Positions 1-17,397 of a stretch of 18,895 nucleotides of DNA are shown piece after piece; the first letter of the stretch is position 1; each line of letters opens with the position of its first letter. The DNA is from a candidate division FCPU426 bacterium (GTDB lineage: Bacteria > Oederibacteriota > JAAXVQ01 > JAUVAV01). The notes beneath the pieces are model-generated. The model searched no databases and was not told the DNA's origin. It saw only the letters and a program-made list of their open reading frames with translations. The DNA lies in the NCBI GenBank assembly GCA_030637655.1, contig DAOWGI010000110.1, positions 1-18,895 on the forward strand. Direction: 5' to 3'. Position numbers and translations under genes: made by a program.

Positions 1-2
1 AC

Positions 3-404
3 ATTAGTAAAACAGCTATTAATATTAATGTCATCACCATAGGTGATTCTCAAATATATGCCGATGAAAATCAGCTTTTCCAGGTAATATTGAATATGTT
101 GCTCAATGCCATACATGCGTCAAAAGAAAGGCAGACGGTGGCCATAACTATAAATAACAGCGGCAATCACACCGAAATATCTATAGATGACGAAGGGGAA
201 GGGATACCACCTGAGAACCTTAAAAGGATATTTGAGCCATTTTATTCCACAAAAATCTATGGCACCGGCCTGGGATTGTCTACATGTAAAAGGATAATAA
301 AATCTCACGGCGGTAGAATTGACGTAGAAAGTGAAGTTGGGAAGGGAAGTAAATTTACTATTATTCTTCCTCATAAAGTTTTGCAACAAAAGGCGATAGC
401 TTAA
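3..404 (+). CDS. Sensor histidine kinase, C-terminal HATPase_c domain (5'-truncated by window edge)
   Basis: Frame open from position 3; N box QLFQVILNMLLNAIHA, G1 DDEGEGI, F box IFEPFYSTK, G2 GTGLGL, HGGRI...GKGSKF. Confidence 0.93.
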   Translation: MSKTAININVITIGDSQIYADENQLFQVILNMLLNAIHASKERQTVAITINNSGNHTEISIDDEGEGIPPENLKRIFEPFYSTKIYGTGLGLSTCKRIIKSHGGRIDVESEVGKGSKFTIILPHKVLQQKAIA

Positions 405-411
405 AATAAGA

Positions 412-745
412 TTAAAACTTACTCCTCGGATGTGCTTTGATATACTCTTTTCGTTTTTTATCATTTGCCACATGGGTATAAATTTGAGTAGTTGCTATTG
501 ATGAATAACCTAATAGTTCCTGGATTGTGCGCAGGTCGCATCCTTTGTCCAAAATGAGTAGCGTATGAATGCCTGAGAGTGTGTGGAGTAGACGGCGGAT
601 CGATACTGGCCAGCAGGGAAGCGCGGTTGATGATCTTTTGGATCATATTTCTCGTTATCCCGAAAAGATTATCCTTGTCCTTGTTAGGCTTCTGAAGAGA
701 GCCGAGATACTTGATAATTGCCAAGTAGACATAAGAAAAATTCAT
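412..745 (-). pseudogene. XerC/XerD-like tyrosine recombinase C-terminal fragment, frameshifted
   Basis: TPHTLRHSYATH in one frame; after a shift near 553 another frame reads LDKGCDLRTIQELLGYSSIATTQIYTHVANDKKRKEYIKAHPRSKF* (stop 412-414). Canonical LGH is LGY; N-terminal part absent. Confidence 0.88.
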
Positions 746-762
746 TTTTTTAACATTTTTTC

Positions 763-791
763 TTGTCTGTACTACCTTGTATGAGTATAAT
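763..791 (+). promoter_or_regulatory. Sigma70-type promoter for tRNA-Arg
   Basis: TTGTCT (763-768), 17 bp, TATAAT (786-791), 12 nt upstream of the tRNA. Confidence 0.7.
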
Positions 792-803
792 TCTTATCTC
801 ATT

Positions 804-878
<75 letters not shown>

Positions 879-880
<2 letters not shown>

Positions 881-991
881 GTCTTCGTTCGGAGCGAAGC
901 GACGAAAGAAGACTGCCACGGCGAAGCCGATTTTAGGCAAAGCCGGGCAGCAAGTAGGAACTTCGCTCCGAACTACGCCTGGGCAAGCCAG
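879..991 (+). repeat. 113-bp tRNA 3'-attached repeat, copy 1
   Basis: Starts in the CCA of tRNA-Arg; same length as and closely similar to 1767-1879 (shared AAGCCGGGCAGCAAGTAG, AACTTCGCTCCGAACTACGCC, GGCAAGCCAG). Confidence 0.9.
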
Positions 992-1010
992 TAACGTTAT
1001 TACTCTCGAT

Positions 1011-1039
1011 TAGAAGGCGGGTATCTCACCCGCCTTCTA
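1011..1039. terminator. 12-bp perfect hairpin, possible terminator or processing stem
   Basis: TAGAAGGCGGGT-ATCTC-ACCCGCCTTCTA; no U-tract, so function uncertain. Confidence 0.4.
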
Positions 1040-1080
1040 GCGTAAAATGGCAAAAGTGTATACAGAATAGAATAACATTC

Positions 1081-1560
1081 ATGACACAATCCAAACCTGA
1101 TGAATACTACATGTCACTGGCCCTGCGGGAAGCGCGAAAAGCGTTTCGGGCCGGAGAAGTCCCGGTAGGCGCTATTGTGGTCAAAGCGGATCAGATTATC
1201 GGACGTGGGTACAATCGCGTTGAACAGAAACAAGAGGCTATGCAGCACGCAGAGCTCATTGCCATGCGACAAGCAGCGCGGCGATTAAAGAGTTGGCGAT
1301 TGGAAGAATGTCAGTTGTATGTCACCTTAGAACCGTGTGCCATGTGCGCCGGCGCAATTATTTGGTCAAGAGTCGAAAAGGTAATATTTGGAGCCAAGGA
1401 TCCCAAAGCCGGGGCTTGCGGGTCGGTTTTAAGAATTCTGGGACATAAAAAATTGAATCACCAACCAAAAGTCAGTAAGGGTGTAGCTGCCGCAGAAAGC
1501 AGTCAACTGCTTAAGACTTTTTTTAAAGCGCTGCGGAAGCAAAAGAAAGCGGAGAGATGA
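1081..1560 (+). CDS. tadA: tRNA adenosine(34) deaminase
   Basis: GEVPVGA, HAE and TLEPCAMC zinc motifs, FGAKDPKAGACGS, C-terminal FFKALR. Confidence 0.96.
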   Translation: MTQSKPDEYYMSLALREARKAFRAGEVPVGAIVVKADQIIGRGYNRVEQKQEAMQHAELIAMRQAARRLKSWRLEECQLYVTLEPCAMCAGAIIWSRVEKVIFGAKDPKAGACGSVLRILGHKKLNHQPKVSKGVAAAESSQLLKTFFKALRKQKKAER

Positions 1561-1642
1561 CCGAGCTGGTCGAAGGTGCACGACTGGAAATCGTGTAGGC
1601 GTTAATAGCGTCTCGAGGGTTCGAATCCCTCTCTCTCCGCCA
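1551..1642 (+). tRNA. tRNA-Ser(GGA), overlaps the last 10 nt of tadA
   Basis: GGAGAGA/TCTCTCC acceptor, CACGA-CT-GGA-AA-TCGTG anticodon arm, long variable arm, GGTTCGAATCC, GCCA end. Confidence 0.96.
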
Positions 1643-1651
1643 GAAAATTTC

Positions 1652-1681
1652 TGTAGAGACGCGATTAATTGCGTCTCTACA
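1652..1681. repeat. GTAG-capped REP-like palindrome
   Basis: TGTAGAGACGCGATTAATTGCGTCTCTACA; second copy at 1983-2011. Confidence 0.85.
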
Positions 1682-1691
1682 TTTCAACCAT

Positions 1692-1768
1692 GGGGCAGTA
1701 GCTCAGTTTGGGAGAGCGCCGCGTTCGCATCGCGGAGGTCGACGGTTCGATCCCGTTCTGCTCCACCA
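1692..1768 (+). tRNA. tRNA-Ala(CGC)
   Basis: GGGGCAG/CTGCTCC acceptor with G3:U70 alanine determinant, CCGCG-TT-CGC-AT-CGCGG anticodon arm, GGTTCGATCCC, ACCA end. Confidence 0.96.
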
Positions 1769-1879
1769 GTCTTCCATCGTCGCTTCGCTCCGAACGAAGA
1801 CTGGTGCGGCGTAGCCAGTTTAAGGCGAAGCCGGGCAGCAAGTAGAAACTTCGCTCCGAACTACGCCCAGGCAAGCCAG
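1767..1879 (+). repeat. 113-bp tRNA 3'-attached repeat, copy 2 (first loop inverted)
   Basis: Starts in the CCA of tRNA-Ala; aligns ungapped with 879-991. Confidence 0.9.
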
Positions 1880-1982
1880 CAAGTGATCCGCGGACTGGAA
1901 GTTAGTCTGTGGTGGAATATATCACCATCGAATCGTAGGGGGTTCGAGGCCATGCACCAGACGGTGCATGGCAGAGTATTTC

Positions 1983-2011
1983 TGTAGAGACGCGATTAAT
2001 CGCGTCTCTGC
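1983..2011. repeat. GTAG-capped REP-like palindrome, copy 2
   Basis: TGTAGAGACGCGATTAATCGCGTCTCTGC; both copies are preceded by ATTTC. Confidence 0.85.
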
Positions 2012-2017
2012 CATTGC

Positions 2018-2109
<92 letters not shown>

Positions 2110-2566
2110 GATTTTTTCGCTTTCAGCGAAAAAATCAGAGAAGATGTGGCTTATTTCCCCTATTTTTTCAATTTTCGCTCTCAATTATTTTTCCCAACGT
2201 GTTTCACTGCAAAACCAGCATTGATTTTAAAGGATAAAAAGAGTGCCAAGCCGAAACGAATAAAAAACCCCAAAACACCTAGGCTATACTTTTTTAGGTA
2301 ACATAAATTTTGTGTTTTGTTGTTTCGTGTTTTATACTACTTTATTAATATAGGTCATACTTGTCGGCATAGTCGATAAATTTTAGTTTTTTTCGATTAT
2401 ATATTAGGTAGGTCCTGAACTCCCCTTTCTACGATGTGGGCTGGGGGGGGGGGTGGTTGCGTGGCGGGGTTGTAAAAACCCTTCGCAAAAAATTTCTGCG
2501 CTGTAAAAACAATTGACCAAATAATCCTAAGCAGCAGAGAAATATTGTAAAGTCAGGGAGTCCCGG

Positions 2567-3601
2567 CTATTTAACCAAAATTCGCAGGGCCGAAGGCACG
2601 ACCTGGATATGGAGTTTTTGTCGTCCCAGATATTCACCATCCAGGTGAACGTATTGACTCTGATTATCGACCTCCAGCTGTTTGCATTGCAAATATTCAA
2701 CATCCAAATATTTTTCCAGTTTTCCCCGTCGTAACCCCCAGAGATAACCGATAAAATTGAAAAACCCCCGTTTTTTAAAGAGACAAACATCCAAATAACC
2801 GTCATTAATTTTGGCATGCGGCAGCAGGACCAAATCACCGCCGTAATATTTCATGTTGCCCACGATCATAAAATAGCCTTTGTGGATTTTTTTGCTGTGA
2901 TCGATTTTGACGCGCAGACTCCGGAAAGGATAAACAAAGAAACCAACCAGGGCGGTAAAAGCCAAGGCAATGACGCCAAAAATTTTTTTTAAATTTCTAT
3001 CAGTGGCCTTGATGACAAAAGCATCGAAGCCGATGCCTGCCATACAGACAAAGTAGCGCTGATTGACTTTACCGAGATCCATGGTAATTATTCGGCCGTT
3101 CCTGAGCAGGGTACAGGCCGCCTTGATATTGGTGGGGATATTCATTTGCAAACCAAAAATGTTAATAGTCCCGGTTGGGATAACAGCCAAGACGGTTTTT
3201 GATCCAGCCAGACCATTGACTACCGCATTGATAGTGCCGTCGCCACCAACAGCAATAACTAAAGTATATTTTTGCTTAGCGCATTTGCGTGCCAAAGCGG
3301 TCGCTTCTTCCGGAGAGGAGCTGATTACGGATCTGGGACGGATGTTGTATTTTGCGAGCTCTGCCTCAATATAATCCAGCTCAGCCATAGGACTATACTT
3401 GATAGCTGAAAGCCTTTTTTTGACACCTAAGATTTGCTGAAAAAAAGGAGGAAAGAGTCCTTGTCCGGAGTGTGGATTGAAAATGAGCATAGTTTTCTTC
3501 CAAGCGTACCCCTTGGTGTGTATATTGACCGGGTTTAGGGAGCTTGGCTTTTTTGAGGGACCAGCAGCAGTGGACACCGGAAACCTCCTCAGTTGAGTCA
3601 C
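2567..3601 (-). CDS. Diacylglycerol/lipid kinase, YegS/Rv2252/BmrU family (start may lie further downstream)
   Basis: IFNPHSG, VGGDGTINAVVNG, IPTGTINIF, AGIGFDA, NMKYYGG, DGYLDV, HLDGE. Confidence 0.92.
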   Translation of the reverse strand: MTQLRRFPVSTAAGPSKKPSSLNPVNIHTKGYAWKKTMLIFNPHSGQGLFPPFFQQILGVKKRLSAIKYSPMAELDYIEAELAKYNIRPRSVISSSPEEATALARKCAKQKYTLVIAVGGDGTINAVVNGLAGSKTVLAVIPTGTINIFGLQMNIPTNIKAACTLLRNGRIITMDLGKVNQRYFVCMAGIGFDAFVIKATDRNLKKIFGVIALAFTALVGFFVYPFRSLRVKIDHSKKIHKGYFMIVGNMKYYGGDLVLLPHAKINDGYLDVCLFKKRGFFNFIGYLWGLRRGKLEKYLDVEYLQCKQLEVDNQSQYVHLDGEYLGRQKLHIQVVPSALRILVK

Positions 3602-3765
3602 TGTATTTAGTCTAGCATAGAAAGTAAAAAAAGAGGAGAAGCAAAGGCGTTTTCATTCGGGTATTTCCGGCAAGGTGAATTGTAATCACAAGTGCAACAT
3701 TTTATCATTTATTATTGAACTATAAAGACTTAAAGAAAAAGATCCACCACAATACCCAAACTACG

Positions 3766-3879
3766 GGCACGAGAGGCACTAAGGCCACAAAGGTTCACTA
3801 AGCAGCATAACGATTAATAATTAAGGTCTATCTTAGGCTTTCCTTTGTGTATCTTAGTGTCCTTAGTGCCTTTGTGGTG
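3766..3879. repeat. Imperfect inverted repeat built from ~9-nt CACWAAGG units
   Basis: Left arm GGCACGAGAGGCACTAAGGCCACAAAGGTTCACTAAG (3766-3802); reverse complement of right arm (3843-3879) CACCACAAAGGCACTAAGGACACTAAGATACACAAAG. Confidence 0.8.
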
Positions 3880-3983
3880 AGTTTTTTAAGGATAAAGTAA
3901 CTATTTGCCTGTTTGTGTAGCAATCAGGTAATGTTGCAATATGAGTTACAATCTGCCGTATTTCCAGCGAAAAGATTATTCCC

Positions 3984-4012
3984 TTGCATGATCGAGCATT
4001 GCTGTGTACACT
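3984..4012 (+). promoter_or_regulatory. Putative sigma70 promoter of typA
   Basis: TTGCAT, 17 bp, TACACT, 40 nt upstream of the ATG. Confidence 0.5.
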
Positions 4013-7760: not shown

Positions 7761-7783
7761 TGAAGGAGTTGGGGTATGAATAA
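7761..7783 (+). repeat. hsdM-like 3' tail / RBS direct repeat, copy 1 (KELGYE*)
   Basis: TGAAGGAGTTGGGGTATGA (7761-7779) is 18/19 identical to 9591-9609. Confidence 0.65.
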
Positions 7784-8897
7784 AATCACAATAAAGAATA
7801 AAAATCTACTGCTGAAAATACGAGAGCTCATTCTATCAGCCCGCACAGCTGCGGTCCGCAGTGTCAACACCCTGCAAGTGTTGACGAATTTTGAAATTGG
7901 ACGCCTGATTGTGGAACATGAACAGGCAGGCGCGAAGCGTGCGGCATACGGCAAGAAACTGCTTAAGGAGCTCTCGGCCATTTTGACAAAAGAATTCGGA
8001 AAAGGATTTTCTTTAACGAATCTAAAATTAATAAGGCGATTTTTTGTTTTATATTCACCTGTAATTGGCCGGACACTGTCCGACCAATTGGAAAAACTTG
8101 GAAAAGGTCAGACAGCGTCTGACCAATCTCAAATAATGCAAACACCATCGGCACAAATGAAAAAAGGGAATAAATCTTCCGGACTATTTACACTCAGCTG
8201 GTCTCATTATGTTTTTTTGATGGGGCTTGATGATGACCAACAAAGAAGTTTTTATGAGATTGAGACAAGTCAACAGAATTGGTCATTACGTGAATTGAAG
8301 AGGCAGTTTGATTCCGGACTGTATGAACGTTTGGCGTTAAGCAGAGACAAGAAAGGAATTAAGAAATTGGCTCAGGAAGGCCAAGTTGTTTCGAAGCCTG
8401 AAGATGTGTTTAAAGAACCGTATGTGCTGGAATTCTTGGGAATCGATGAAAAAACGAAATATTCCGAATCCGATCTGGAAACCGCCATTATCAATAAACT
8501 TGAACACTTTTTGCTGGAATTGGGCAAAGGATTTCTTTTTGAGGCCCGTCAGAAACGCTTCACCTTTGATGAGGAACACTTTTTCATTGATCTGGTTTTT
8601 TACAACCGGTTGTTGCAGTGCTATGTCCTGATTGACTTGAAGATTGGAAAACTTACGCATCAGGACCTGGGACAAATGCAGATGTACGTGAACTATTTTG
8701 ATCGTCATGTCAAAAAGCAGGATGAACATCCGACAGTGGGCATTATTCTGTGCAAGAAAAAACATGATGTCTTGGTTGAAATTACCCTTCCCAAAGATAC
8801 AGCCATTTATGCCAAAGAATACAAGCTTTATCTGCCATCCAAAGCGGAATTAAGGCGGAAGCTAATTGCCTGGTCAGAGGAAGAGGGCAAGGCATGA
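7776..8897 (+). CDS. yhcG: YhcG/DUF1016 PD-(D/E)xK nuclease family protein
   Basis: LTKEFGKGFS, LSWSHY, FYEIE...WSLRELKRQ, KEPYVLEFL, FLLELGKGF, IDLVFYNRLL, LIDLKIGKLTHQDLGQMQMYVNY, GIILC. Confidence 0.93.
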   Translation: MNKITIKNKNLLLKIRELILSARTAAVRSVNTLQVLTNFEIGRLIVEHEQAGAKRAAYGKKLLKELSAILTKEFGKGFSLTNLKLIRRFFVLYSPVIGRTLSDQLEKLGKGQTASDQSQIMQTPSAQMKKGNKSSGLFTLSWSHYVFLMGLDDDQQRSFYEIETSQQNWSLRELKRQFDSGLYERLALSRDKKGIKKLAQEGQVVSKPEDVFKEPYVLEFLGIDEKTKYSESDLETAIINKLEHFLLELGKGFLFEARQKRFTFDEEHFFIDLVFYNRLLQCYVLIDLKIGKLTHQDLGQMQMYVNYFDRHVKKQDEHPTVGIILCKKKHDVLVEITLPKDTAIYAKEYKLYLPSKAELRRKLIAWSEEEGKA

Positions 8898-9466
8898 TTT
8901 GCAGTCCGGTAATCCGTCAACGCTGTTCGATACGATTACAGGGATACGATTATTCGCAGGCCGGATTATATTTCATCACTATATGTTGCCAAAACCGATT
9001 AAATTTATTCGGTGAAATCAAAAACCATGAAATGATTTTGAATAATGCCGGGGAAATGATTAAATGCCAATGGCTGGAACTGATAAATCGTTTTAATAAT
9101 ATTACATTACATGAATTTGTTGTTATGCCCAATCATTTTCATGGAATCATTGAATCCGTAACAATCGAACAAATTGTAGGGGTGCCCCTTGTGGGTACCC
9201 TAAAAACAAGGGATCAACAACCAATAATGGGGCAACCACAAGGGATTGCCCCTACGCTGGGTGATATGGTGGGGGCATTCAAATCATTAACAACGGATGA
9301 ATATATTCGAAATATTAAACAAAATAAATGGCAGCCATTTTCCGGCAAATTATGGCAACGCAATTATTACGAACACATTATTCGCGACGAACAATCCTAT
9401 TTAAAAACATCCGAATATATCATCAACAATCCGATGAATTGGGAAAAGGACGATTATTATGCCTGA
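8894..9466 (+). mobile_element. REP-associated tyrosine transposase (RAYT, IS200-like Y1 HUH family)
   Basis: SIRLQGYDYSQAGLYFITIC, HUH motif MPNHFHGII, WQRNYYEHIIRD, catalytic Tyr in YIINNP; ATGA overlap with yhcG stop; adjacent GTAG REPs. Confidence 0.92.
9176..9255. repeat. REPIN (inverted REP pair) inside the RAYT coding sequence
   Basis: GTAGGGGTGCCCCTTGTGGGTACCCT...GGGGCAACCACAAGGGATTGCCCCTAC; near-identical to 9492-9572. Confidence 0.9.
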
Positions 9467-9491
9467 ACATTTTTACGCAATCATTTAAATC

Positions 9492-9572
9492 GTAGGGGTG
9501 CCCCTTGTGGGTACCCTAATAAACAAGTGATCAACAAGCAAGCATGGGGCAACCACAAGGGATTGCCCCTAC
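9492..9572. repeat. REPIN copy downstream of RAYT
   Basis: Same arms as 9176-9255; spacer differs by one inserted T and four substitutions. Confidence 0.9.
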
Positions 9573-9574
9573 AA

Positions 9575-9613
9575 AAAATGCAGGGGTTTTTGAAGGAGTT
9601 AGGGTATGAGTGA
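9575..9613 (+). pseudogene. Remnant 3' tail of hsdM (KMQGFLKELGYE*)
   Basis: Resembles the usual HsdM C-terminus (..LKELGY) and overlaps the hsdS start as in hsdM-hsdS coupling; begins right after the REPIN. Confidence 0.65.
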
Positions 9614-10912
9614 GTGGGTCTCTTTAAAATTACGGGAACTCGTTGGCGCGCCAATATCCGGTAGACGGCCTGTTGGTGGCGTTAGCACTGAGACCGAAGG
9701 TGTACCAAGTCTTGGCGGTGAAAACATTCGCGCCGATGGTGGGGTTTCGCTAGAAAATGTCAATCGTGTGCCCGATAAGTTTTATCGGCATATGCCAAAA
9801 GGACGACTGCAAGCACTCGACGTACTTATCAATAAGGATGGGGCGCAAACAGGTAAGGTTGGTATCTATGGGGGTGACTTTCCGGAAGCTGGTGTTAATG
9901 AACATATCTTTATTCTTCGTTCGAATAATGGTTCTATCGATCAACGTCTTCTTTATTACTACCTGCTGTTACCTGATACACAAGCCAAGATATCCCGGCG
10001 AATTACTGGTTCGGCGCAGCCAGGTCTAAATAGCGTATTCGTAGATGCAATTGAAATCAAGATACCGAAAAATGCAACAAATCAACACCGTATCGCCTCA
10101 ATCCTCTCAACCATCGATGAAGCCATCGAACAGACCGAAGCCCTGATTGCAAAGACGCAGCAGATCAAAGCAGGGCTGATGCACGACCTCTTCACTCGAG
10201 GTGTTCTACCCAACGGCCACCTCCGCCCCTCGCACGAGGAAGCGCCAGTGCTTTATAAGGACTCACGTTCTCCACTTGGATGGGTACCGAAGGAGTGGGA
10301 GGTGGCTCCTTTGTCCGAATTCTTGGAAGGGGGGCCTAAGAATGGATATAGCCCACCAGAGGTTTTTGAATGGGATGGCATGTATTCACTTGGACTGGGC
10401 TGTCTGACGGTCGATGGGTTTAGGGCCAAACAACTAAAGATTGTCTCGGCTGTTTCCCAAGCTTGTCACGACGCCGTTGTGAAAGATGGTGATTTTTTGC
10501 TTAGTCGTGCTAACACACAAGAACTCGTTGGACTTTGTGGAATCTTCCGGGATGTAGGTGGGCCATGTATTTATCCGGACCTCATGATGAGATTGAAACC
10601 AAATCGAGGAGTCTCAACTGCGTTTCTCGAACAGCTGCTTCTTAGTCCACTAATGCGTCTCCAAATCACAGCTGCGGCAGTCGGAACGTCCGGGAGCATG
10701 GTCAAGTTAAATTCACGGTCAGTTTTACGATTAATGATTGCTGGTCCTCAAGAGGAAGAACAGCAACAGATTCTTGTGGCATTCAATTACAGCGACAGGA
10801 ACTGGCAGCTCTAGAAAGCGAACTCATCAAGTTCCAGCAACTCAAACATGGTCTCATGCACGACCTCTTAACAGGTCGGGTGCGGGTAACCAAAGAACAG
10901 GAAACGCACTGA
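9606..10912 (+). pseudogene. hsdS: Type I restriction-modification specificity subunit HsdS, frameshift near the 3' end
   Basis: Two TRDs; central conserved helix QHRIASILSTIDEAI...KAGLMHDLFTRG; main frame stops at 10814 while the -1 frame continues QELAALESELIKFQQLKHGLMHDLLTGRVRV...ETH* (TGA 10910-10912). Confidence 0.9.
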
Positions 10913-11751
10913 TGGATATGACAGAACTTAACAAGATAAGACAAGAAATAACTGATAATTTCAACGCCAACCTTGAAGAAGTTAATAAGCTATTGAATTT
11001 TGATACTAATGTTTTAGAAAATGTAATAGAGAAATTAAACGGACTTCATAATATGGCAATTGAGAGATTAAAGCTTCATGAAAATCATGATTTTATGAAA
11101 AAGATGGTAAATACTACAAAAGAAATAGAAAACATTCGGGATCATGGTTCGGTTAATCAATGCTACTATAGCACTATAAATAATCAGTGTGTCGTGCTAC
11201 TGGTGTCACATTTTTCAGCAACCTTACACGATTTGTTTAGAAAAGTGATTGAAGTATATATTAATAATTCATTCACCGAGCATTTGGATGATGTGGCCAA
11301 AATTGAGTTTACGGTTAAGGAACTGATAGATCATAAGCAAGATGAAAAATGTATTGGCGATATAATATTGGATAAAGATAAAACCAAAAGCGTCAACTTT
11401 CAGGATATGAAAAGCACAAAACGGGTATTTGACAGTTGTTTTCAGATTAATTTGTTGAAAAATATAAGTGTGCATGAGGAAAACGTTATATTTGCTCAAA
11501 CGGCAAGGCATAATATTGTTCATAATGGAGCAATTGTTAATCAGCAATTTATCACAAGAATAAAAGCAGCATCAGGTAGAAATCTAAAACAAGATGTAGA
11601 GTTTGAAGATGGGCAGGTACTGAAGTTTAATCAAGATGAAATAGAAATATTAGAGAATAGCATGAAGGAATTTGTGAGTGACATTTTTAATAAAATAGAG
11701 GTGTATTTTAAAAATAAAAAAGAAACTGCTTCGGTGATTTGTGATGATTAA
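10912..11751 (+). CDS. Hypothetical protein with HEPN-like RxxxxH motif (putative RNase), 279 aa
   Basis: ATG overlaps the restored hsdS stop (TGATG); helical-looking sequence with RHNIVHNG near the C-terminus; AT-rich (17/60 G+C in 11041-11100). Confidence 0.65.
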   Translation: MDMTELNKIRQEITDNFNANLEEVNKLLNFDTNVLENVIEKLNGLHNMAIERLKLHENHDFMKKMVNTTKEIENIRDHGSVNQCYYSTINNQCVVLLVSHFSATLHDLFRKVIEVYINNSFTEHLDDVAKIEFTVKELIDHKQDEKCIGDIILDKDKTKSVNFQDMKSTKRVFDSCFQINLLKNISVHEENVIFAQTARHNIVHNGAIVNQQFITRIKAASGRNLKQDVEFEDGQVLKFNQDEIEILENSMKEFVSDIFNKIEVYFKNKKETASVICDD

Positions 11752-11772
11752 AAAGATAAAAATCATTTTGCG

Positions 11773-11838
11773 TACCACCACGTTGAAAAACCATTCCTTG
11801 ACCAGTTTTCAGAATTGGGCAGGAAGGTCATTGTACAG
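11773..11838 (+). repeat. Degenerate duplicate of the hsdR 5' end
   Basis: 11778-11805 is identical (28 bp) to 13432-13459; translates YHHVEKPFLDQFSELGRKVIVQ versus HsdR YLHVEKPFLDQLSALGWTVIDQ; no start codon. Confidence 0.92.
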
Positions 11839-11876
11839 AGACTAAATTTTATTCTTTTTAAATCAGGAGACCGGAA

Positions 11877-13421
11877 ATGACCACTAAGCTACCAATCAAC
11901 CTCTCAGCCCTTCTCCGCCAACGCACTGTCGAAGGTGAGCGGATTGAATATAAAAAGGGCTGGAATCCTGATGCAATCATCAGAACGATTTGTGCCTTTG
12001 CCAATGATTTCGAAAATCTGGGCGGTGGGTATGTGGTTATCGGGCAGGATTGCGGAACAGACGGTCGGCCCGTTTTTCCGCCTGTTGGTTTAAAAGACAA
12101 TCAACTCGACAAGATTCAACGCGAGTTGCTCCAGGCCTGCAATTTGATTGAGCCGTCCTATTTCCCGGTCCTTAGTGCGGAGCGTTTTGAGGGAAAGAAT
12201 ATTATCGTACTCTGGGCGCCGGGCGGACAGAATCGTCCTTACAAAGCACCAAAAGCTGTTACAGCCAAAACCAAGGAGTATCGCTACTACATCCGCCGCT
12301 ATTCAAGCACAATTGAGGCGCGTAACCAGGATGAGCGCGAGTTGCTGAGTTTGGCTGCCAATGTTCCTTTTGACGACCGTTACTATCAAGCAGCCAAGCC
12401 GGATGACCTGTCACCACGGCTGATGCAGGAATTTTTAAGTGAAGTAGGCAGCAATCTTGCGGATGAGGCCAAAAATCTCTCGACCGTTGACCTGGGCCGG
12501 CAGATGAATGTTGTGGGCGGTCCTGCGGAAGCTGCTTTTCCGAAAAATGTCGGTTTGCTGTTTTTTAACGAACAGCCGTATAAATATTTTCCAGCAACAC
12601 AGATTGATGTAGTGTGGTTTCCGGAAGGTGCGGGCGGAGACCGTTTTGACGAGAAAAGCTTTAAAGGGCCTCTTGCCCGCATAACCCGTGAGGCGCTTGA
12701 TTACATTGAGCGTAATTATCTCAAGGAAACTGTTATCAAGCACCCGGACCGGGCTGAAGCAGAGCGTTTATGGAACTTTCCCTATGCTGCTATTGAAGAA
12801 GCAGTGGTTAATGCGGTTTACCATCGTTCCTATGAGGAACGGGAGCCTATTGAAGTACGGATCACTCCGGAAGATATGGTTGTGTTAAGCTTTCCCGGTC
12901 CTGATCGTTCCATAAAAATGAAAGACCTTAGGATTGGTAAGGCAGTCAGCCGCCGCTATCGCAACCGGCGAATAGGGGAGTTTCTCAAAGAGCTGGATCT
13001 TACAGAAGGACGTTCTACCGGAATACCGAAGATATTAAAGATTATGAGTGCCAATGGATCACCGAAACCTGAATTTGAAACGGATGAGGACAGAACCTAT
13101 TTTTTAATACGGCTTCCGGTCCATAAACATGCAGCGCAGGAAGTTGCGTCAAAAGGTAATAACCAAGCACCCCTCAAGTACCCCTCAAGTACCCCTCAAG
13201 TCACAAAGTTTATACAGACGATCAAAGGGGAAATGAGTCGGGAGGAATTGATGAAAAAACTGGGATTAAAGGACAGGATGCATTTTTCCAGAGAATATCT
13301 GCAACCAGCATTATCCGAAGGAATGATTGAAATGACGATTCCCGACAAACCCCAAAGCAGTAAACAGCAGTACCGGTTAACTGAGAAGGGACGGCAAATA
13401 GTCCAAGAGGCTGCGGAATGA
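11877..13421 (+). CDS. Schlafen/AlbA_2 domain protein with HATPase_c_4 (RecG-C-like) domain and C-terminal winged HTH
   Basis: EGERIEYK...TICAFAN...GGGYVVIG (AlbA_2); EEAVVNAVYHRSY, YRNRRI, EGRSTGI (HATPase-like); YLQPAL..G.IEMTIPDKP.S.KQ.YRLT C-terminal HTH. Confidence 0.88.
   Translation: MTTKLPINLSALLRQRTVEGERIEYKKGWNPDAIIRTICAFANDFENLGGGYVVIGQDCGTDGRPVFPPVGLKDNQLDKIQRELLQACNLIEPSYFPVLSAERFEGKNIIVLWAPGGQNRPYKAPKAVTAKTKEYRYYIRRYSSTIEARNQDERELLSLAANVPFDDRYYQAAKPDDLSPRLMQEFLSEVGSNLADEAKNLSTVDLGRQMNVVGGPAEAAFPKNVGLLFFNEQPYKYFPATQIDVVWFPEGAGGDRFDEKSFKGPLARITREALDYIERNYLKETVIKHPDRAEAERLWNFPYAAIEEAVVNAVYHRSYEEREPIEVRITPEDMVVLSFPGPDRSIKMKDLRIGKAVSRRYRNRRIGEFLKELDLTEGRSTGIPKILKIMSANGSPKPEFETDEDRTYFLIRLPVHKHAAQEVASKGNNQAPLKYPSSTPQVTKFIQTIKGEMSREELMKKLGLKDRMHFSREYLQPALSEGMIEMTIPDKPQSSKQQYRLTEKGRQIVQEAAE
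13164..13201 (+). repeat. 11-bp tandem repeat, about 3.5 copies, inside the Schlafen gene linker
   Basis: CAAGCACCCCT CAAGTACCCCT CAAGTACCCCT CAAGT. Confidence 0.9.
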
Positions 13422-16400
13422 GCGAATACCTCCACGTTGAAAAACCATTCCTTGACCAGCTTTCAGCTCTTGGCTGGACGGTAATTGATCAAGGCCAGGG
13501 GATTATTCCGACTGATCCTACCAAAAGTCTGCGCTCAAATTTTCGGGAATGGATTTTGCCGGATGTTTTTCAAGAGGCGGTACAGTCAATTAATCTACTG
13601 CCCAAGGGCAAGTCTTGGCTAACGGAGCGGCAGCTTGATGATCTGCGTGATCAAATTCTCAGACTGCCAAACCGGACACTGCTTGAAGCCAATGAGAATG
13701 TGCAAAACCTATTTTTTAAGGCACAGGTTGGTGTCAATGAAATAACCGGCGAAGACGATCCGGTAGTAAAGCTAATTGACTTTGAGCATCCGGAGAAAAA
13801 TCAATTCCATACTATCAACCAATTTCGCATTGATACACCGGGGTGCGTGAAAAGCTTTATTATTCCTGACATTGTGCTTTTTGTAAATGGAATGCCTTTG
13901 GTTGTGGTAGAAGCCAAGATCGGTGATCCGAATACAGCCAATCCTTTACATGAAGCTTTTGTACAACTTTTGCGTTATCGGGATGGACGATCAGAAACTC
14001 AAAAGGCCGGACTGAGAGAAGGGGAACCGCGACTATTTTATACAAATCTGCTATTAGTTCGTACTTGTGGAGAAAAGGCGGAATTCGGAACTATTACCTC
14101 CGGTCATGAACACTTTTATGCCTGGAAAGATATCCGGCTGGAGAGCAAACAGAAATATAAACCACCTTTAGGTATTGAACGCGAGCAGGAAAAATTAGTG
14201 CAGGGATTGTTTTCACCTGCGATCTTGCTTGATGTGCTTCGTACCTGCGCGGTTTTTAAAGATACGGATGACGGCTGTCGTATAAAAGTCGTATGCCGAT
14301 ACCAACAATACCGTGCAGCCAGGAAAATTGTTGAACGGTTGCGTACAGGCAAGACTTCGGAATTACGGTCCGGTGTGATCTGGCACACGCAAGGTTCGGG
14401 CAAGTCCTTGACTATGGTGTTTGTTGCCCGAATGCTGAGAGCGTCAACTGATCTATCTGATATTAAAATAGTACTGGTCAATGACCGGGTGGATCTGGAA
14501 GAACAACTTGCAAGAACAGCCAAGCTGATAGGCGGCAAAATCAATGTTATAGAAAGTAAAGATCAGCTTTGGGAAGACCTGAGTACTGATGCTTCGAATG
14601 TTAATATGGTGATGGTGCATAAATTCAATGAGCAAGAGGAAGAGATTCCCATGATGGTCGCCGAGGCGGTGGCAACGTATAACGGTATCCCTGCAAGCGA
14701 TACTTTTGGTGTTGTGAATTACTCTGATCGCATCTTACTCATGATAGATGAGGCGCACCGTACCCAGGGCTCGGATTTGGGAGATAACCTTTTTGAGGCT
14801 TTTCCCAATGCCACGCGCATTGCCTTTACCGGCACTCCGCTGATTACCGAACAGCATGGAACCAGAAGAACTGTAAAACGTTTCGGTGAATATATTGATA
14901 TGTATAAGTTAATGGATGCGGTTAATGACAATGCCACCTTGCAGATTCTTTACGAAGGAAGGACTGCTGATACGGCGTTGCAGGACAAGCACGGATTTGA
15001 TACCAAGTTTGAGGATCTTTTTAAGGAACGAAGTGAAGAAGAAATTCTGGCTATCAAGAAAAAATACGGCGCTACCGGGGATATCCTGGAAGCAGAGAAG
15101 CGTATTGAGGCCATTGCCCGTGATCTGGTTAATCACTATATTGATAACATTTTGCCTGATGGGTTTAAAGCACAGGAGGTTTGCCATTCCAAGCTGGCGG
15201 CAATTAGATATCAAAAAGCCATCCGGGAAGCTTTACTTGAGAGACTGGATCAAGAAAAAGTCAAACCAGAACCTGATCTGGAGCTTATCCGTAAAATTGC
15301 TTTTCTAAAAGCCGTGGTGGTGATTTCTTCTGATCCAACCAACGAACCCGCAATAATCACAATAGCCCGTAAGCAAGCCAGGCACTGGAATGCAGTTGAG
15401 AATTTTTGTAAACCTTTTGACTTCAATGATCCTGACAAAGTACTCACTGGCATTGCCATTTTAATAGTCTGTGATATGTTGATTACAGGATTCGACGCAC
15501 CCATTGAGCAGGTTATGTACATAGATAAGAAACTTAAAGAACACAGCCTGCTGCAAGCCATTGCGCGTGTCAATAGGGTAAATACAAACAAACATCGTGG
15601 GTTTATTGTGGATTATATAGGACTGGCCAATCATCTTGCTTACGCGCTGTCAATTTACACAAAAGAAGATGCTCAAGATATTAAAGAGGGACTAAAGAAT
15701 ATTCTGAGTGAGATTCCCATACTGGAAGAACGTTATCAACGCTTGATCCAACATTTCCAATCAAATGGAGTTAGTGATATAAAAGCCTTTGTAAAGGGTT
15801 CGTTAAGCACGCCAGAGGCGGAGGTGGCGGTGCTGCACAAGTCTGTTGCCGCACTAAAGGAGATCAAACCACGGGCTGATTTTGAAGTGTATTTGAAGAA
15901 ATTTTTGCAAAGCTTAAATCTTATTTTACCCAATCCTGCCGGACATTCATTTCGCGGCCCAGCCAGGCGCTTTGGTTATATTCTTCGCATGGTCAAGGAA
16001 AGGTATAAAGATGAATCACTGAATATTGCAGATGCAGGCGCCAAGGTGAAAGCGCTGATTAATGAGCATCTTATTGATTTAGGCATCGATCCCAAAATAC
16101 CACCCATTGAATTGTTGTCCGAAGCATTTCTGGAACATGTGCAGAAACACTCGGACGGCAACCCGGAAGCTAAAGCCAGCGAAATGGAGCATGCCATTCG
16201 CAAACACTGTACAATCCACTTTGACGAAGACCCGGCATTTTATAAGCGGCTTAGCGAGAAGCTCGAAAAGCTGATTCAGGAACATCACAATAACTGGAAC
16301 GCGCTTGCTGAGGGTTATGAACAATTGAGGAAAGAAGCAATGGAAGGAAGAACCGCGACCGTTGAGGGTCTTGATAAAGAGGCTGTGATATTTTATGATT

Positions 16401-16672
16401 ATATTATTCAATTGGCTTTTCATGGAGATGAAATTCCGGAAGAAAAAAGCAGGTCCCTGAAAAAACTAATGCAGCGCATTGTAGAGATGCTGCAAGATAC
16501 AATCGGTGTTCTTGATTTCTGGAAAAAATCGATTGAAGTGAAGAAACTGCGCGGCAATATTGACACTGAGATATTATTGGCTGATATTCCGGAATTTAAT
16601 GAAAAACATGAACGCCTTGCGGTTGAGATTGTTAAACTGGCTGAAAAAAGACACAAGGAGTTAATCAAGTGA
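13418..16672 (+). CDS. hsdR: Type I restriction endonuclease subunit R
   Basis: PDIVLFVNGMPLVVVEAK nuclease motif, RYQQY, GVIWHTQGSGKS Walker A, IDEAHR, AFTGTP, MLITGFDAP, LLQAIARVNR; 1084 aa, uninterrupted. Confidence 0.97.
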   Translation: MSEYLHVEKPFLDQLSALGWTVIDQGQGIIPTDPTKSLRSNFREWILPDVFQEAVQSINLLPKGKSWLTERQLDDLRDQILRLPNRTLLEANENVQNLFFKAQVGVNEITGEDDPVVKLIDFEHPEKNQFHTINQFRIDTPGCVKSFIIPDIVLFVNGMPLVVVEAKIGDPNTANPLHEAFVQLLRYRDGRSETQKAGLREGEPRLFYTNLLLVRTCGEKAEFGTITSGHEHFYAWKDIRLESKQKYKPPLGIEREQEKLVQGLFSPAILLDVLRTCAVFKDTDDGCRIKVVCRYQQYRAARKIVERLRTGKTSELRSGVIWHTQGSGKSLTMVFVARMLRASTDLSDIKIVLVNDRVDLEEQLARTAKLIGGKINVIESKDQLWEDLSTDASNVNMVMVHKFNEQEEEIPMMVAEAVATYNGIPASDTFGVVNYSDRILLMIDEAHRTQGSDLGDNLFEAFPNATRIAFTGTPLITEQHGTRRTVKRFGEYIDMYKLMDAVNDNATLQILYEGRTADTALQDKHGFDTKFEDLFKERSEEEILAIKKKYGATGDILEAEKRIEAIARDLVNHYIDNILPDGFKAQEVCHSKLAAIRYQKAIREALLERLDQEKVKPEPDLELIRKIAFLKAVVVISSDPTNEPAIITIARKQARHWNAVENFCKPFDFNDPDKVLTGIAILIVCDMLITGFDAPIEQVMYIDKKLKEHSLLQAIARVNRVNTNKHRGFIVDYIGLANHLAYALSIYTKEDAQDIKEGLKNILSEIPILEERYQRLIQHFQSNGVSDIKAFVKGSLSTPEAEVAVLHKSVAALKEIKPRADFEVYLKKFLQSLNLILPNPAGHSFRGPARRFGYILRMVKERYKDESLNIADAGAKVKALINEHLIDLGIDPKIPPIELLSEAFLEHVQKHSDGNPEAKASEMEHAIRKHCTIHFDEDPAFYKRLSEKLEKLIQEHHNNWNALAEGYEQLRKEAMEGRTATVEGLDKEAVIFYDYIIQLAFHGDEIPEEKSRSLKKLMQRIVEMLQDTIGVLDFWKKSIEVKKLRGNIDTEILLADIPEFNEKHERLAVEIVKLAEKRHKELIK

Positions 16673-17397
16673 AAGGGTTGAAAGAAAAGAGTATCCCATA
16701 CGAGGTCGTTCGCAGTCAACGAGCAACAGCTGATATTATCATTGAAAGGGATGGCAGTGTGCTGGTACGCGCTCCTGTTGAAATGGGGGACGAACAGATA
16801 AATGATATTGTAATATCAAAGTACTACTGGATGTATAAAAGCCTGGCTGAGTGGCGAGATTTGAACGCAACCCGGGAACTGCGGGAATACAAGAATGGTG
16901 AAGGATTTTTATATCTGGGTTGTGCTTACCGGTTGCTGTTGGTCCATAACCAGAAAGAACCGCTGAAATTAAAAGACGGTAGGTTTTGTCTCCGCCGGGA
17001 CATTGTTGAACAAGACGGAATTAGTAGGGGCACAAAATTTTGTGCCCCTACTGTCAAAAAGACCTTCCGAGACTACTATACCAAACGCGGAATAGAGCGT
17101 ATCAACCAGCGCGTGAGTTATTATGCGCCCAAGGTTGGAGTAATTCCGAAAGCAGTGAATGTCCGCGAGATAGGGCATCACTGGGCCACTTGCTCACCAA
17201 GTGGAATGCTGGCTTTTCACTGGAAATGCATGATGGCTCCTCAGACGATTATCGATTACATCGTGGTTCACGAGCTGTGCCACTTTCACCATCGAGATCA
17301 TACGGGTGTATTTTGGAATGAGGTTGATAAAGTAATGCCCAAGTACCGGGAGAGAAAAGAATGGCTCCGCAAGAATGGCGCGGGATTGGATGTGTAA
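16669..17397 (+). CDS. M48/YgjP (DUF45) family zinc metallopeptidase-like protein
   Basis: VLVRAP, NGEGFLYLG, IIDYIVVHELCH (HExxH), H...FWNEV; GTGA overlap with hsdR stop; typical hsdR neighbour. Confidence 0.92.
   Translation: MKGLKEKSIPYEVVRSQRATADIIIERDGSVLVRAPVEMGDEQINDIVISKYYWMYKSLAEWRDLNATRELREYKNGEGFLYLGCAYRLLLVHNQKEPLKLKDGRFCLRRDIVEQDGISRGTKFCAPTVKKTFRDYYTKRGIERINQRVSYYAPKVGVIPKAVNVREIGHHWATCSPSGMLAFHWKCMMAPQTIIDYIVVHELCHFHHRDHTGVFWNEVDKVMPKYRERKEWLRKNGAGLDV
17023..17052. repeat. Perfect 30-bp GTAG REP palindrome in frame within the M48 gene
   Basis: AGTAGGGGCACAAAA|TTTTGTGCCCCTACT, exactly codons 119-128 (SRGTKFCAPT). Confidence 0.9.

Follow-up and report, generated by a model that had tools for sequence, protein, structure and literature searches.

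The 3' ends of tRNA and tmRNA genes are classical integration sites. Seg proteins contain a C-terminal DNA-binding domain in addition to their nuclease domain. The gene of SegB, a free-standing GIY-YIG homing endonuclease of phage T4, is located in the phage tRNA gene cluster (PMC2330249) and is a selfish GIY-YIG gene among tRNA genes that is present or absent between relatives, as is the cassette presented here. The Ssn proteins are single-domain GIY-YIG endonucleases of single-stranded DNA (ssDNA) with associated NTS/SRM hairpin repeats (Chenal et al. 2025, PMC11893778); the authors themselves remark on an IS-like architecture. Assignment of the protein to CDD cd10448 (GIY-YIG_unchar_3) and site-specific cutting of ssDNA beside the hairpin are among the features of that system.

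The window, i.e. the whole stretch of 18,895 nucleotides analyzed here, contains two copies of a repeat that is attached to tRNA genes. We interpret these repeats, with a probability of about 0.75, as solo (ORF-less) units derived from a small selfish cassette, of which they represent the non-coding leader, and the loop inversion in copy 2 as a secondary accident. The full cassette would consist, in order, of a tRNA or tmRNA gene, a ~120-nt leader on the last bases of that gene, and a single-domain GIY-YIG gene.

The direct repeat is 119 nt long (876-994 and 1764-1882; 82% identity ungapped, spacing 888 nt), and copy 2 was recovered at E = 4.7e-27 in a search of the window's own 3.28-Mb genome. 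ARAGORN places the ends of tRNA-Arg(ACG) and tRNA-Ala(CGC) at 880 and 1768, and thus both copies begin within CCA. The first-pass annotation had reported a 113-bp repeat on the CCA of two different tRNAs; the repeat search and ARAGORN bear out the pair, with a unit of ~116-119 nt rather than 113. The two copies are mutual closest relatives, sharing 85.5% identity outside the hairpin, compared to at most 67% with any other copy. A third copy (C23:31247-31298) is cut by a contig end and lies downstream of a decayed tRNA-Arg paralogue that has the same promoter as the tRNA-Arg of the window, bringing the copy number in this genome to 2-3.

A REP/BIME-type repeat moved by the RAYT-like transposase of the window would be one explanation of such a pair. 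GTAG REP palindromes abound in this genome, with two of them located between the copies, and the window does encode a RAYT-like ORF. However, the leader has no GTAG-headed palindrome and is present in only 2-3 copies versus 113 GTAGAGACGCG half-sites, which led us to reject membership in this class. Homologues of the leader elsewhere are paired with GIY-YIG genes, and no Y1 transposase was seen by eye directly behind them. We regard a REP origin as exceedingly unlikely.

The leader is a conserved folded module of ~120 nt, which starts on the last bases of the tRNA or tmRNA gene (..CCA|G(T/G)CTTCG). Hairpin P1 includes the terminal CA of the tRNA, and its loop pairs with a stretch ~60 nt further downstream to form the pseudoknot P2. 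Another hairpin, P4, contains an insert that is variable, and the tail (..CTACGCCNNGGCAAGCCA) shows sequence conservation. Many copies have a perfect P1 of 12-16 bp. In the alignment, 94.8% of the cells are paired and 16 of 26 pairs have changed on both sides, a result equalled by none of 500 shuffles. This covariation supports the predicted P1, P2 pseudoknot and P4; the covariance model contains neither P2 nor P3, so that the covariation seen in these two helices is not a product of fitting. All helices are present in copy 1; copy 2 retains P1 and P4, with five mismatches in P2. Mismatches of the G-U (13) and A-C (14) types show no strand bias, so that RNA, ssDNA of either strand and protein-bound inverted repeats are indistinguishable for some helices.

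A scan of window positions 1-4000 against Rfam 15 (E up to 1, self-cleaving ribozymes included) returned nothing overlapping 876-996 or 1764-1883; the leader, with its well-supported pseudoknot, belongs to no family in the library searched. The helix order is similar to that of HDV-like ribozymes, but the long perfect P1 of many copies leaves no P3/L3. A 3' helix of GGCG(T)AG with CTACGCC was also rejected: a compensatory change in one homologue (L072) fits P4 and not this pairing.

Table 1. Positions of the leader copies, their helices and neighboring features in the window.
Feature	Position	Strand	Basis or remark
Integrase fragment	461-745	opposite to leader	94-codon remnant
Promoter-like site TTGTCT-17-TATAAT before tRNA-Arg	763..791	+	10/12 matches; duplicated at C23 end
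tRNA-Arg(ACG)	804..880	+	ARAGORN, Rfam scan; terminal CA (879-880) forms the first two pairs of copy 1 P1
Leader copy 1, forward, without ORF	879..996	+	Covariance model match, 133.5 bits; pair counts
Copy 1 P1	879-886 with 908-915, loop 887-907	+	
Copy 1 P2 (pseudoknot)	887-896 with 964-973, extendable to 887-899 with 961-973	+	
Copy 1 P3	916-917 with 946-947	+	
Copy 1 P4	919-922 with 942-945 plus 926-927 with 937-938	+	
Copy 1 conserved tail GAACTACGCCTGGGCAAGCCAG	970-991	+	
GC-rich hairpin TAGAAGGCGGG...CCCGCCTTCTA between copy 1 and tadA	1011..1039	+	No T-run; outside the repeat; no terminator-like site listed there
tadA (tRNA adenosine deaminase-type), between both copies	1081..1560	+	
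REP units, separate from leader	1652-1681 and 1983-2009		
tRNA-Ala(CGC)	1692..1768	+	ARAGORN, Rfam scan; 3' CACCA pairs into the extended copy 2 hairpin
Leader copy 2, flipped hairpin, without ORF	1764..1883	+	Covariance model match, 100.9 bits
Copy 2 stem	1767-1774 with 1796-1803, extended 1764-1774 with 1796-1806; inverted loop 1775-1795	+	
Copy 2 P4	1807-1810 with 1830-1833	+	
Copy 2 tail	1858-1879	+	
Hairpin CCATGCACCAGACGGTGCATGG	1950..1971	+	Variant of a terminator-type hairpin that the genome also has at other places; outside the element
RAYT-like ORF	8894-9466		

To define the distribution of the leader, DNA searches and a covariance model (R1) were used. Full-length matches of ~70% identity were found by DNA search in 3 of 40 other genomes (G001, G007 and G014). 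R1 places full-length copies in the first two among 10 other genomes of the family, and in G014 among 4 further genomes of the order. When 80 genome-contig loci were fetched by the tail pattern, R1 matched at 27 places in 24 of them at 47 bits or more; one locus of this set (L043) is G014's own contig. The positive records are labelled Desulfobacterales/delta, Verrucomicrobiota, PVC, Planctomycetota orders, Acidobacteriota classes and Omnitrophota. Thus, by the covariance model, full-length homologues extend beyond the family and order to metagenome-assembled genomes (MAGs) whose labels name at least six other phyla. Tail conservation in the copies fetched by tail is partly ascertainment; the tail is nearly intact also in relatives found by BLAST, and four copies fished with P4 have it either complete or with one to three alterations. 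A metagenome scan with the P4 pattern covered 80 loci and gave six full-leader matches (E up to 1e-6), located in five of them; the remaining matches were chance matches in coding sequence or stand-alone P4-like hairpins. Since the P4 hairpin alone occurs as a repeat in many metagenome contigs, the leader may be a mosaic of mobile hairpins. In viral contigs, the tail pattern matched seven times, always at 19 bits or less and never with a full leader.

Based on ARAGORN or Rfam calls, 20 of 31 full-length copies start on the final base of a tRNA (10) or a tmRNA (10). The remaining 11 comprise three that form the second or third unit of a tandem array, two truncated by contig starts, four with T-arm-like sequence upstream by eye only, and two with nothing tRNA-like upstream. 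The host genes of the homologues include tRNA-Pro, Val, Leu, Ala, Cys and Tyr as well as tmRNA, in MAGs of several labelled phyla, and leader, tRNA and ORF all lie on one strand. Seven relatives were inspected at each of the two tRNAs of the window, and the leader was found behind tRNA-Arg(ACG) in none of the seven and behind tRNA-Ala(CGC) in none of the seven. Presence of the cassette also varies at one site among close relatives: at the tmRNA loci of a single genus, the site is empty in G010, carries the leader alone in G007, and carries both leader and ORF in G001. The variety of hosts and the absences in relatives support the earlier suggestion of a small structured element that is tied to tRNA 3' ends and behaves as mobile. 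After CCA, the sequence differs completely between genera, and the 3' boundary of the insertion is therefore not definable by comparison with empty sites.

Such a location might instead reflect att-site DNA that tyrosine-recombinase elements left behind, the repeat then being the scar or an arm of a genomic island carried by an integrase. This would agree with the use of tRNA and tmRNA 3' ends as integration sites, with the integrase fragment in the window and, by eye, with a 3' fragment of tRNA-Phe preceding the G014 leader. However, the identity with the tRNA is confined to CCA or CA, compared to the longer duplicated 3' segment expected of an att site. The inserts are ~120-400 bp in size, and the downstream stretches inspected show, directly behind the leader, a GIY-YIG gene and never an integrase (judged by eye, with five ORFs family-scanned). 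In addition, compensatory helix changes and variable hairpin inserts are typical of a folded strand. An att origin was rejected as extremely improbable.

A GIY-YIG coding sequence lies within 600 nt downstream in 20 of 33 copies, some of these sequences being degraded or cut by the locus end, and the ORF is missing in 10 of 30 assessable copies. The ORFs (81-110 codons) are single-domain, with the GIY-YIG domain spanning nearly the whole length, and the start codon abuts the conserved tail of the leader or sits within ~150 nt. All five ORFs tested matched Pfam PF01541, and no NCBIfam model scored above its cut-off; among PDB chains, the best match is 1zg2, which is a UPF0213 protein (E = 1.3e-5). 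The first-pass annotation had suggested looking for a nearby nuclease or recombinase gene. The nuclease part of this suggestion holds, since a GIY-YIG gene follows most homologues, but no recombinase is linked to the element.

Neither window copy has an ORF or a GIY-YIG match within 600 nt. Since such an ORF follows 20 of 33 homologues, the window copies appear to be gene-less derivatives. By tblastn, the cognate nuclease gene is absent from the assembly, in which the single match (38% identity) is at the tmRNA locus on C86. The window copies are thus probably inert relics. With an assembly completeness of 91.5% and a C23 copy truncated at its contig end, the cognate ORF could have escaped assembly.

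The persistence of ORF-less copies could also indicate a host-beneficial structured 3' trailer or non-coding RNA, acting in tRNA/tmRNA maturation, termination or stability, which has spread horizontally with GIY-YIG genes hitch-hiking. The conserved, covarying fold would fit such a role. Furthermore, other tRNAs of the family bear unrelated hairpins that start right at CCA, and tRNA-Arg, leader and tadA follow each other with no intervening terminator-like site. However, the leader is patchy even within one genus, is missing at the same tRNAs in all seven relatives, attaches to many different tRNAs and to tmRNA, and has no Rfam match. The tight link between the leader and a single nuclease family, whose start codon falls at the leader tail, is more in keeping with a cassette, and we consider a host function unlikely.

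Among published systems, Ssn/SRM is the closest to this selfish cassette, although its motif does not match. Both combine a tiny GIY-YIG protein without a DNA-binding domain and conserved hairpin DNA flanking the gene, which also occurs in gene-less copies. However, the degenerate SRM motif (HGTCWY..RNCYNB) is present in none of 33 leaders on either strand, compared with 8 of 6600 shuffled rows. The non-coding part of the cassette has several helices and a pseudoknot within ~120 nt, lies to one side of the gene, is tied to tRNA-type 3' ends, and occurs in 2-3 copies per genome versus hundreds in the Ssn system. The main text of PMC11893778 contains no occurrence of tRNA or tmRNA; its supplements might list tRNA-adjacent homologues. 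In contrast to Seg and I-TevI type enzymes, the ORFs of the cassette (81-110 aa) are single-domain, with no separate DNA-binding domain, and they are chromosomal, located at the exact tRNA 3' end behind a conserved folded leader. Our literature search turned up no publication that describes GIY-YIG genes or folded leaders located at the 3' ends of bacterial tRNA or tmRNA genes.

The two window copies differ in the orientation of the P1 loop. Both have the stem CAGTCTTC/GAAGACTG, and when the copy 2 loop is reverse-complemented, 19 of its 21 positions agree with the loop of copy 1. The entire hairpins (874-915 and 1767-1808) are 95% complementary across 42 nt. A distal segment, CTTCGCTCCGAAC, occupies 961-973 in copy 1, where it is complementary to the loop (878-899 with 961-982, 86%), and 1849-1861 in copy 2, where it is a direct repeat of the 3' part of the loop. 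The copy 2 stem reaches 11 bp (CACCAGTCTTC/GAAGACTGGTG) by pairing with the tRNA 3' CACCA. The shared stem, the inverted loop, the direct repetition of the remainder of the unit, the relation of the downstream segment to each loop and the 11-bp stem had been described in the first-pass annotation and were reproduced here.

The same annotation had inferred an invertible segment giving two RNA folds. As a programmed switch, it would alternate between the P2 fold and a long CCA-sequestering hairpin, and so modulate tRNA 3' processing. The inversion is real and clean, fold prediction gives different folds for the two orientations, and flips recur in unrelated lineages (copy 2, L026 and, by eye, G004). 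However, forward is the norm: among 31 copies, 22 are forward, two are flipped and seven are too palindromic to call. The flipped copies, window copy 2 and L026, are both decayed cassettes without an intact ORF. In copy 2, P2 cannot form because its distal arm is now a direct repeat of the loop. The P1 arms are only 8-12 bp long, no recombinase is associated with the element, and the integrase in the window is a remnant on the other strand. Logan contigs of three samples (X1, X2 and X3), which drop rare variants, give only the flipped orientation at copy 2, with no strand-changing joint. We therefore read the flip, which destroys P2, as a quasi-palindrome inversion and not as a programmed switch, which we regard as very unlikely.

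Small hairpin-associated inversions and quasi-palindrome template switching are known from chloroplast non-coding DNA and from E. coli quasi-palindrome mutagenesis. Copy 2 resembles these cases in that a loop is inverted between short arms and the stem is lengthened by 'correction', with CCA changed to GTG, complementary to CAC. A template switch during replication would have flipped the hairpin and, in the same event, lengthened the stem by CAC/GTG and destroyed P2. This mechanism is offered for the flip only, and the inversion looks like an accidental, secondary one. Small hairpin inversions could pass for regulated switches in annotation. A P1-only hairpin after tRNA-Tyr in G004 also looks flipped by eye.

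The following model is proposed for the selfish cassette. It would be expressed from the tRNA promoter, and the leader may insulate tRNA 3' maturation from the mRNA, limit translation of the nuclease, or both. By analogy with the Ssn enzymes, the nuclease could recognize the hairpin of its own cassette as ssDNA and nick near the end of the tRNA gene; copying of the cassette into further tRNA-type 3' ends would be driven by such nicks. Units consisting of the leader alone could be moved in trans or spread by recombination. If the nuclease indeed recognizes its hairpin as ssDNA, the family would offer new sequence specificities for ssDNA tools and a testable model of site finding by domain-less nucleases. 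The distribution points to cross-phylum minimal selfish cassettes that parasitize tRNA/tmRNA 3' ends and probably also their promoters. It would also account for conserved 'orphan' repeats fused to tRNA genes and for contig breaks at tRNA loci.

A more specific and doubtful proposal is that the leader is a putative nucleic-acid partner, RNA or ssDNA, which gives the domain-less GIY-YIG nuclease its address and directs cutting or copying to tRNA-type 3' ends across phyla. The leader would present the P1 hairpin, paired with the terminal CA of the tRNA, together with the invariant tail. If correct, this would represent a new kind of structure- or base-pair-guided homing, with gene-less leaders mobilized in trans. 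In a weaker variant, the leader would be a new self-cleaving RNA that frees the tRNA 3' end.

The surroundings of copy 1 suggest how it may be transcribed today. A promoter scan found no promoter-like site on the + strand of 881-1080, and a site scan found no terminator-like site separating tRNA-Arg, leader and tadA. Thus, tadA is probably transcribed by read-through from the tRNA-Arg promoter across copy 1, which now probably lies inside the read-through leader of tadA.

The window holds a direct repeat of 119 nt (82% identity, no gaps), whose two copies lie 888 nt apart in the repeat search and both start within a tRNA CCA, since the ARAGORN calls for tRNA-Arg(ACG) and tRNA-Ala(CGC) end at 880 and 1768. 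These repeats are gene-less leaders of a family of GIY-YIG mini-cassettes at tRNA and tmRNA ends, in which a folded, non-coding leader of ~120 nt starts on the 3' end of the RNA gene and, in the full cassette, is followed by a nuclease ORF. The repeat next to two tRNA CCA ends, reported by the first-pass annotation, is real. Read from the sequence, the copy 1 loop agrees with the reverse-complemented copy 2 loop at 19 of 21 positions, and the repeat search finds the two hairpins 95% complementary across 42 nt. The search agrees that a downstream segment, CTTCGCTCCGAAC, can pair with the loop of copy 1 by complementarity, whereas it directly repeats the copy 2 loop, and that the copy 2 stem has 11 bp and takes in CAC from the tRNA end.

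Features of the window (positions in nt)
Feature	Position	Strand	Remarks
Integrase remnant, 94-codon ORF	461-745	-	just upstream of tRNA-Arg promoter
Promoter-like site	763-791	+	ahead of tRNA-Arg
tRNA-Arg(ACG)	804-880		ARAGORN
Copy 1	876-994
Copy 1 hairpin	874-915
Copy 1 loop	887-907
CTTCGCTCCGAAC, copy 1	961-973
tadA-type deaminase gene	1081-1560		directly behind tRNA-Arg(ACG); order kept across family
tRNA-Ser(GGA)	from 1551		start overlapped by last 10 nt of tadA ORF (804-1642 region)
GTAG REP palindromes	1652-1681, 1983-2009		separate from leader element
tRNA-Ala(CGC)	1692-1768		ARAGORN
Copy 2	1764-1882
Copy 2 hairpin	1767-1808
Copy 2 loop	1775-1795
CTTCGCTCCGAAC, copy 2	1849-1861
Terminator-type hairpin	1950-1971		type seen at other gene ends; separate from leader element
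A/T-rich post-CCA hairpin	2110-2136
Gene cluster	7776-17397		in order: YhcG/DUF1016 nuclease, RAYT-like ORF, type I restriction S and R subunits, Schlafen/AlbA_2, YgjP-like
RAYT-like ORF, 190 aa	8894-9466	+	NCBIfam REP-associated tyrosine transposase, 69.7 bits, below cut-off of 80

A search of the window's own genome, G000 (3.28 Mb in 120 contigs, with a completeness of 91.55% and the window as the entire contig C91), returned the second copy with E = 4.7e-27. The genome-wide check for copies also yielded a third leader, C23:31247-31298, truncated at the contig end. Its locus (C23:31175-31298; L003, L158) consists of a decayed tRNA-Arg(ACG) paralogue, the leader start and the contig end. The paralogue has the anticodon ACA, is labelled tRNA-Cys(ACA) by ARAGORN and carries mismatches in the anticodon and T stems; the locus is a segmental duplicate, as its promoter region is shared with the tRNA-Arg of the window. 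An analogous decayed copy, labelled tRNA-His(ATG), adjoins the tRNA-Arg of genome G007.

BLAST detected full-length matches (~70% identity) in three of 40 other genomes. In G001 and G007 the leader directly joins the tmRNA gene at its CCA, and that of G014 lies, by eye, behind an apparent 3' fragment of tRNA-Phe. A covariance model, R1, was built from four leader copies; across the family (11 genomes) and order (15 genomes) it found no full copies beyond those detected by BLAST, and it picked up a P1-only hairpin behind tRNA-Tyr in G004. Scanning genome_contigs with a pattern for the conserved 3' tail gave at least 119 stretches, where a rough estimate expects ~140 by chance. R1 scored 27 places in 24 of 80 retrieved loci at 47 bits or more, one of these loci (L043) being G014's own contig. 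Taxon labels on these records comprise Desulfobacterales, "delta proteobacterium", Verrucomicrobiota, PVC group, Pirellulales, Planctomycetales, Phycisphaerae, Acidobacteriota classes and Omnitrophota; one further label, Bathyarchaeia, is suspect. Rfam contains no family matching the leader.

An R1-based alignment, A3 (33 rows, 31 full-length copies), supports the proposed element with tRNA 3' ends as its target. The start of 20 of the 31 coincides with the last encoded base of an ARAGORN- or Rfam-called gene, which is a tmRNA in ten cases and a tRNA in ten (Arg, Ala x4, Pro x2, Val x2, Leu); the tail pattern used to fish for homologues contained no tRNA sequence. Three others are second or third tandem units in arrays that open with a tRNA- or tmRNA-linked copy, two are cut by contig starts, four have upstream sequence that is, by eye, only T-arm-like, and two (L067, L094) have nothing tRNA-like upstream. 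The junction reads ..CCA|G(T/G)CTTCG. In several host genes this CCA is C71-C72-A73 and not the encoded 3' terminus (e.g. the tRNA-Ala of L096, CGTCTCC-A-GTCTTCG), so the leader adjoins the last encoded base with either type of CCA. Second units of tandem arrays (L043, L062, L099, L050, L093) start CTTCG.., without the first CCAG(G/T), and in L093 the stop codon of one GIY-YIG ORF is directly followed by the next leader; these joints may show where the unit truly ends or where it inserts.

The check for a neighbouring nuclease gene was positive. Immediately 3' of most homologous leaders is a small ORF with the motifs YVYIL..HYTG.T.DL..RL..HN.G, and tblastn places a GIY-YIG-type coding sequence within 600 nt downstream in 20 of 33 copies. 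Three of the other 13 have less than 50 nt of available sequence, so that ten of 30 assessable copies, including copies 1 and 2, are ORF-less. All five ORFs tested match Pfam GIY-YIG (PF01541; E 1e-12 to 1e-14); these ORFs, at 81-110 aa, comprise the nuclease domain alone, and in several cassettes the start codon overlaps the leader tail (..GGCAAGCCATG). The assembly thus lacks a nuclease gene cognate to the window copies, since the sole related ORF in G000 is a 38%-identical GIY-YIG gene on C86, behind tmRNA and with a different leader. At that locus (C86:17900-18343; L157, L166) a ~125-nt leader, closed by long-range inverted repeats, begins at the first base past the tmRNA CCA and precedes this distinct GIY-YIG ORF (MNWYVYILQC...). 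Yet another GIY-YIG type lies behind the tmRNA of genome G006 (C1, L164); thus, several cassette families use the tmRNA 3' end.

By A3 counts, the leader folds into P1 (8 bp, including the tRNA CA), P2 (10 bp, a pseudoknot between the P1 loop and a segment ~60 nt downstream), P3 (2 bp) and P4 (4 + 2 bp). Paired cells amount to 94.8%, with both-side changes in 16 of 26 pairs and 79 cells, a level reached by none of 500 shuffles; sliding partner columns by 1-3 lowers pairing to 24-43%. The alignment was not fitted to P2 and P3, as neither is part of the R1 model. P2 arms vary by lineage (GGAGCG/CGCTCC, GAAAC/GTTTC, GCCGC/GCGGC, GCAGCGC/GCGCTGC, TCGACC/GGTCGA), P4 shows a G-C to C-G swap in L072, and several copies have an extra hairpin within the P4 loop. 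At positions 12-15 a local P1 extension covaries (GTCC/GGAC) and P2 does not (six C-A cells); therefore, P1 probably has 12 bp, with P2 confined to the loop proper. Mismatches of the G-U and A-C types occur equally often (13 vs 14), and the fold may act either as RNA or as single-stranded DNA. The tail, CTACGCCNNGGCAAGCCA, is the most conserved leader sequence. It has one to three changes in the BLAST-found relatives, in whose detection it played no part, and in four copies retrieved by a P4 pattern it is complete or altered by one to three changes. The P4 module, (C)TTGTCACGGCG(A/T)AGC..loop..GCGAAGCCGG, is also found alone, at times in tandem, in many unrelated metagenome contigs (e.g. L171, L181, L185, L196, L228, L231, L234, L241), where it forms a short hairpin whose internal loop is a symmetric GAA/GAA; mobile hairpins of this kind may have been the building blocks of the leader.

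The inverted loop had been taken for an invertible segment giving two functional folds, a reading that the results do not support. With the P1 interiors set against the distal arm in both orientations, 22 of 31 copies are classed as forward, two (copy 2 and L026) as flipped and seven as too palindromic to call. Both flipped copies are without an intact ORF; copy 2 lacks one altogether, and only 47 residues align in L026. P2 cannot form in a flipped copy because the flip puts the complement in place of the loop; copy 2 has five P2 mismatches. Just 3' of its stem, copy 2 has GTG in place of the consensus CCA, and pairing with the tRNA CAC lengthens the stem. Loop inversion together with stem lengthening is a known outcome of template switching during replication of a quasi-palindrome. 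Copy 2 is flipped in contigs of three samples, X2 (1709-2009) and X1 (1777-2008) without differences and X3 (1712-2009) with seven; no strand-changing joint was found among these samples' contigs, which are blind to minor variants. The preferred reading of the flip is a rare inversion of the hairpin, degenerative in nature.

The tmRNA 3' flank within one genus is empty in G010, holds a leader only in G007 and a leader with ORF in G001. The gene order tRNA-Arg/tadA/tRNA-Ser/tRNA-Ala/tRNA-Ser is kept across the family, and none of seven relatives has a leader behind tRNA-Arg(ACG), and none of seven behind tRNA-Ala(CGC). With the hairpin excluded, identity between copies 1 and 2 is 85.5%, vs at most 67% with any other copy, so one was the parent of the other within this lineage. 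This duplication involved either leader-only units or units whose ORF was later lost identically from both. We infer the cassette's mode of movement, as well as its mode of expression; copy 1 probably lies within a read-through transcript taking in tadA. The plus strand has no terminator-like site from 881 to tadA and no promoter-like site in 881-1080 by our scan.

Going by the main text of PMC11893778, the closest published system is that of the Ssn family, whose members consist of a single GIY-YIG domain and cleave single-stranded DNA beside NTS/SRM hairpin repeats flanking their own genes. A term search of that main text returned no mention of tRNA or tmRNA, and none of the 33 leaders matches the degenerate SRM pattern as described there. 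Phage Seg endonucleases, such as SegB of the T4 tRNA cluster (PMC2330249), share a selfish GIY-YIG logic with the cassettes but are not known to share their single-domain size, exact 3'-end site or leader. Full-text literature searches at main-text level did not find the tRNA/tmRNA-end arrangement. The nearest solved chain to the cassette ORF is 1zg2, a UPF0213 protein (E = 1.3e-5).

tRNA-Arg(ACG) is the tRNA edited by TadA. In the integrase remnant, similarity to tyrosine recombinase/integrase models is limited to part of their C-terminal region (Pfam profile positions 105-140 of 172). The REP family has 113 GTAGAGACGCG half-sites of the GTAG palindrome in G000, and the RAYT-like ORF, which also has a weak Pfam Y1_Tnp match, is a candidate for its RAYT gene. 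The surrounding cluster looks like a restriction/defence island; its Schlafen/AlbA_2 protein has a Fic-like C-terminus, and its last gene encodes a YgjP-like metallopeptidase. Behind many tRNA genes of the family, A/T-rich hairpins (GATTTTTTCGC-loop-GCGAAAAAATC) begin right at the first base past the CCA, as in the window and at relatives' loci L146, L147, L151 and L153. In one genus, a further ~60-nt repeat (AGAGCATTTGAG...) comes after these hairpins.
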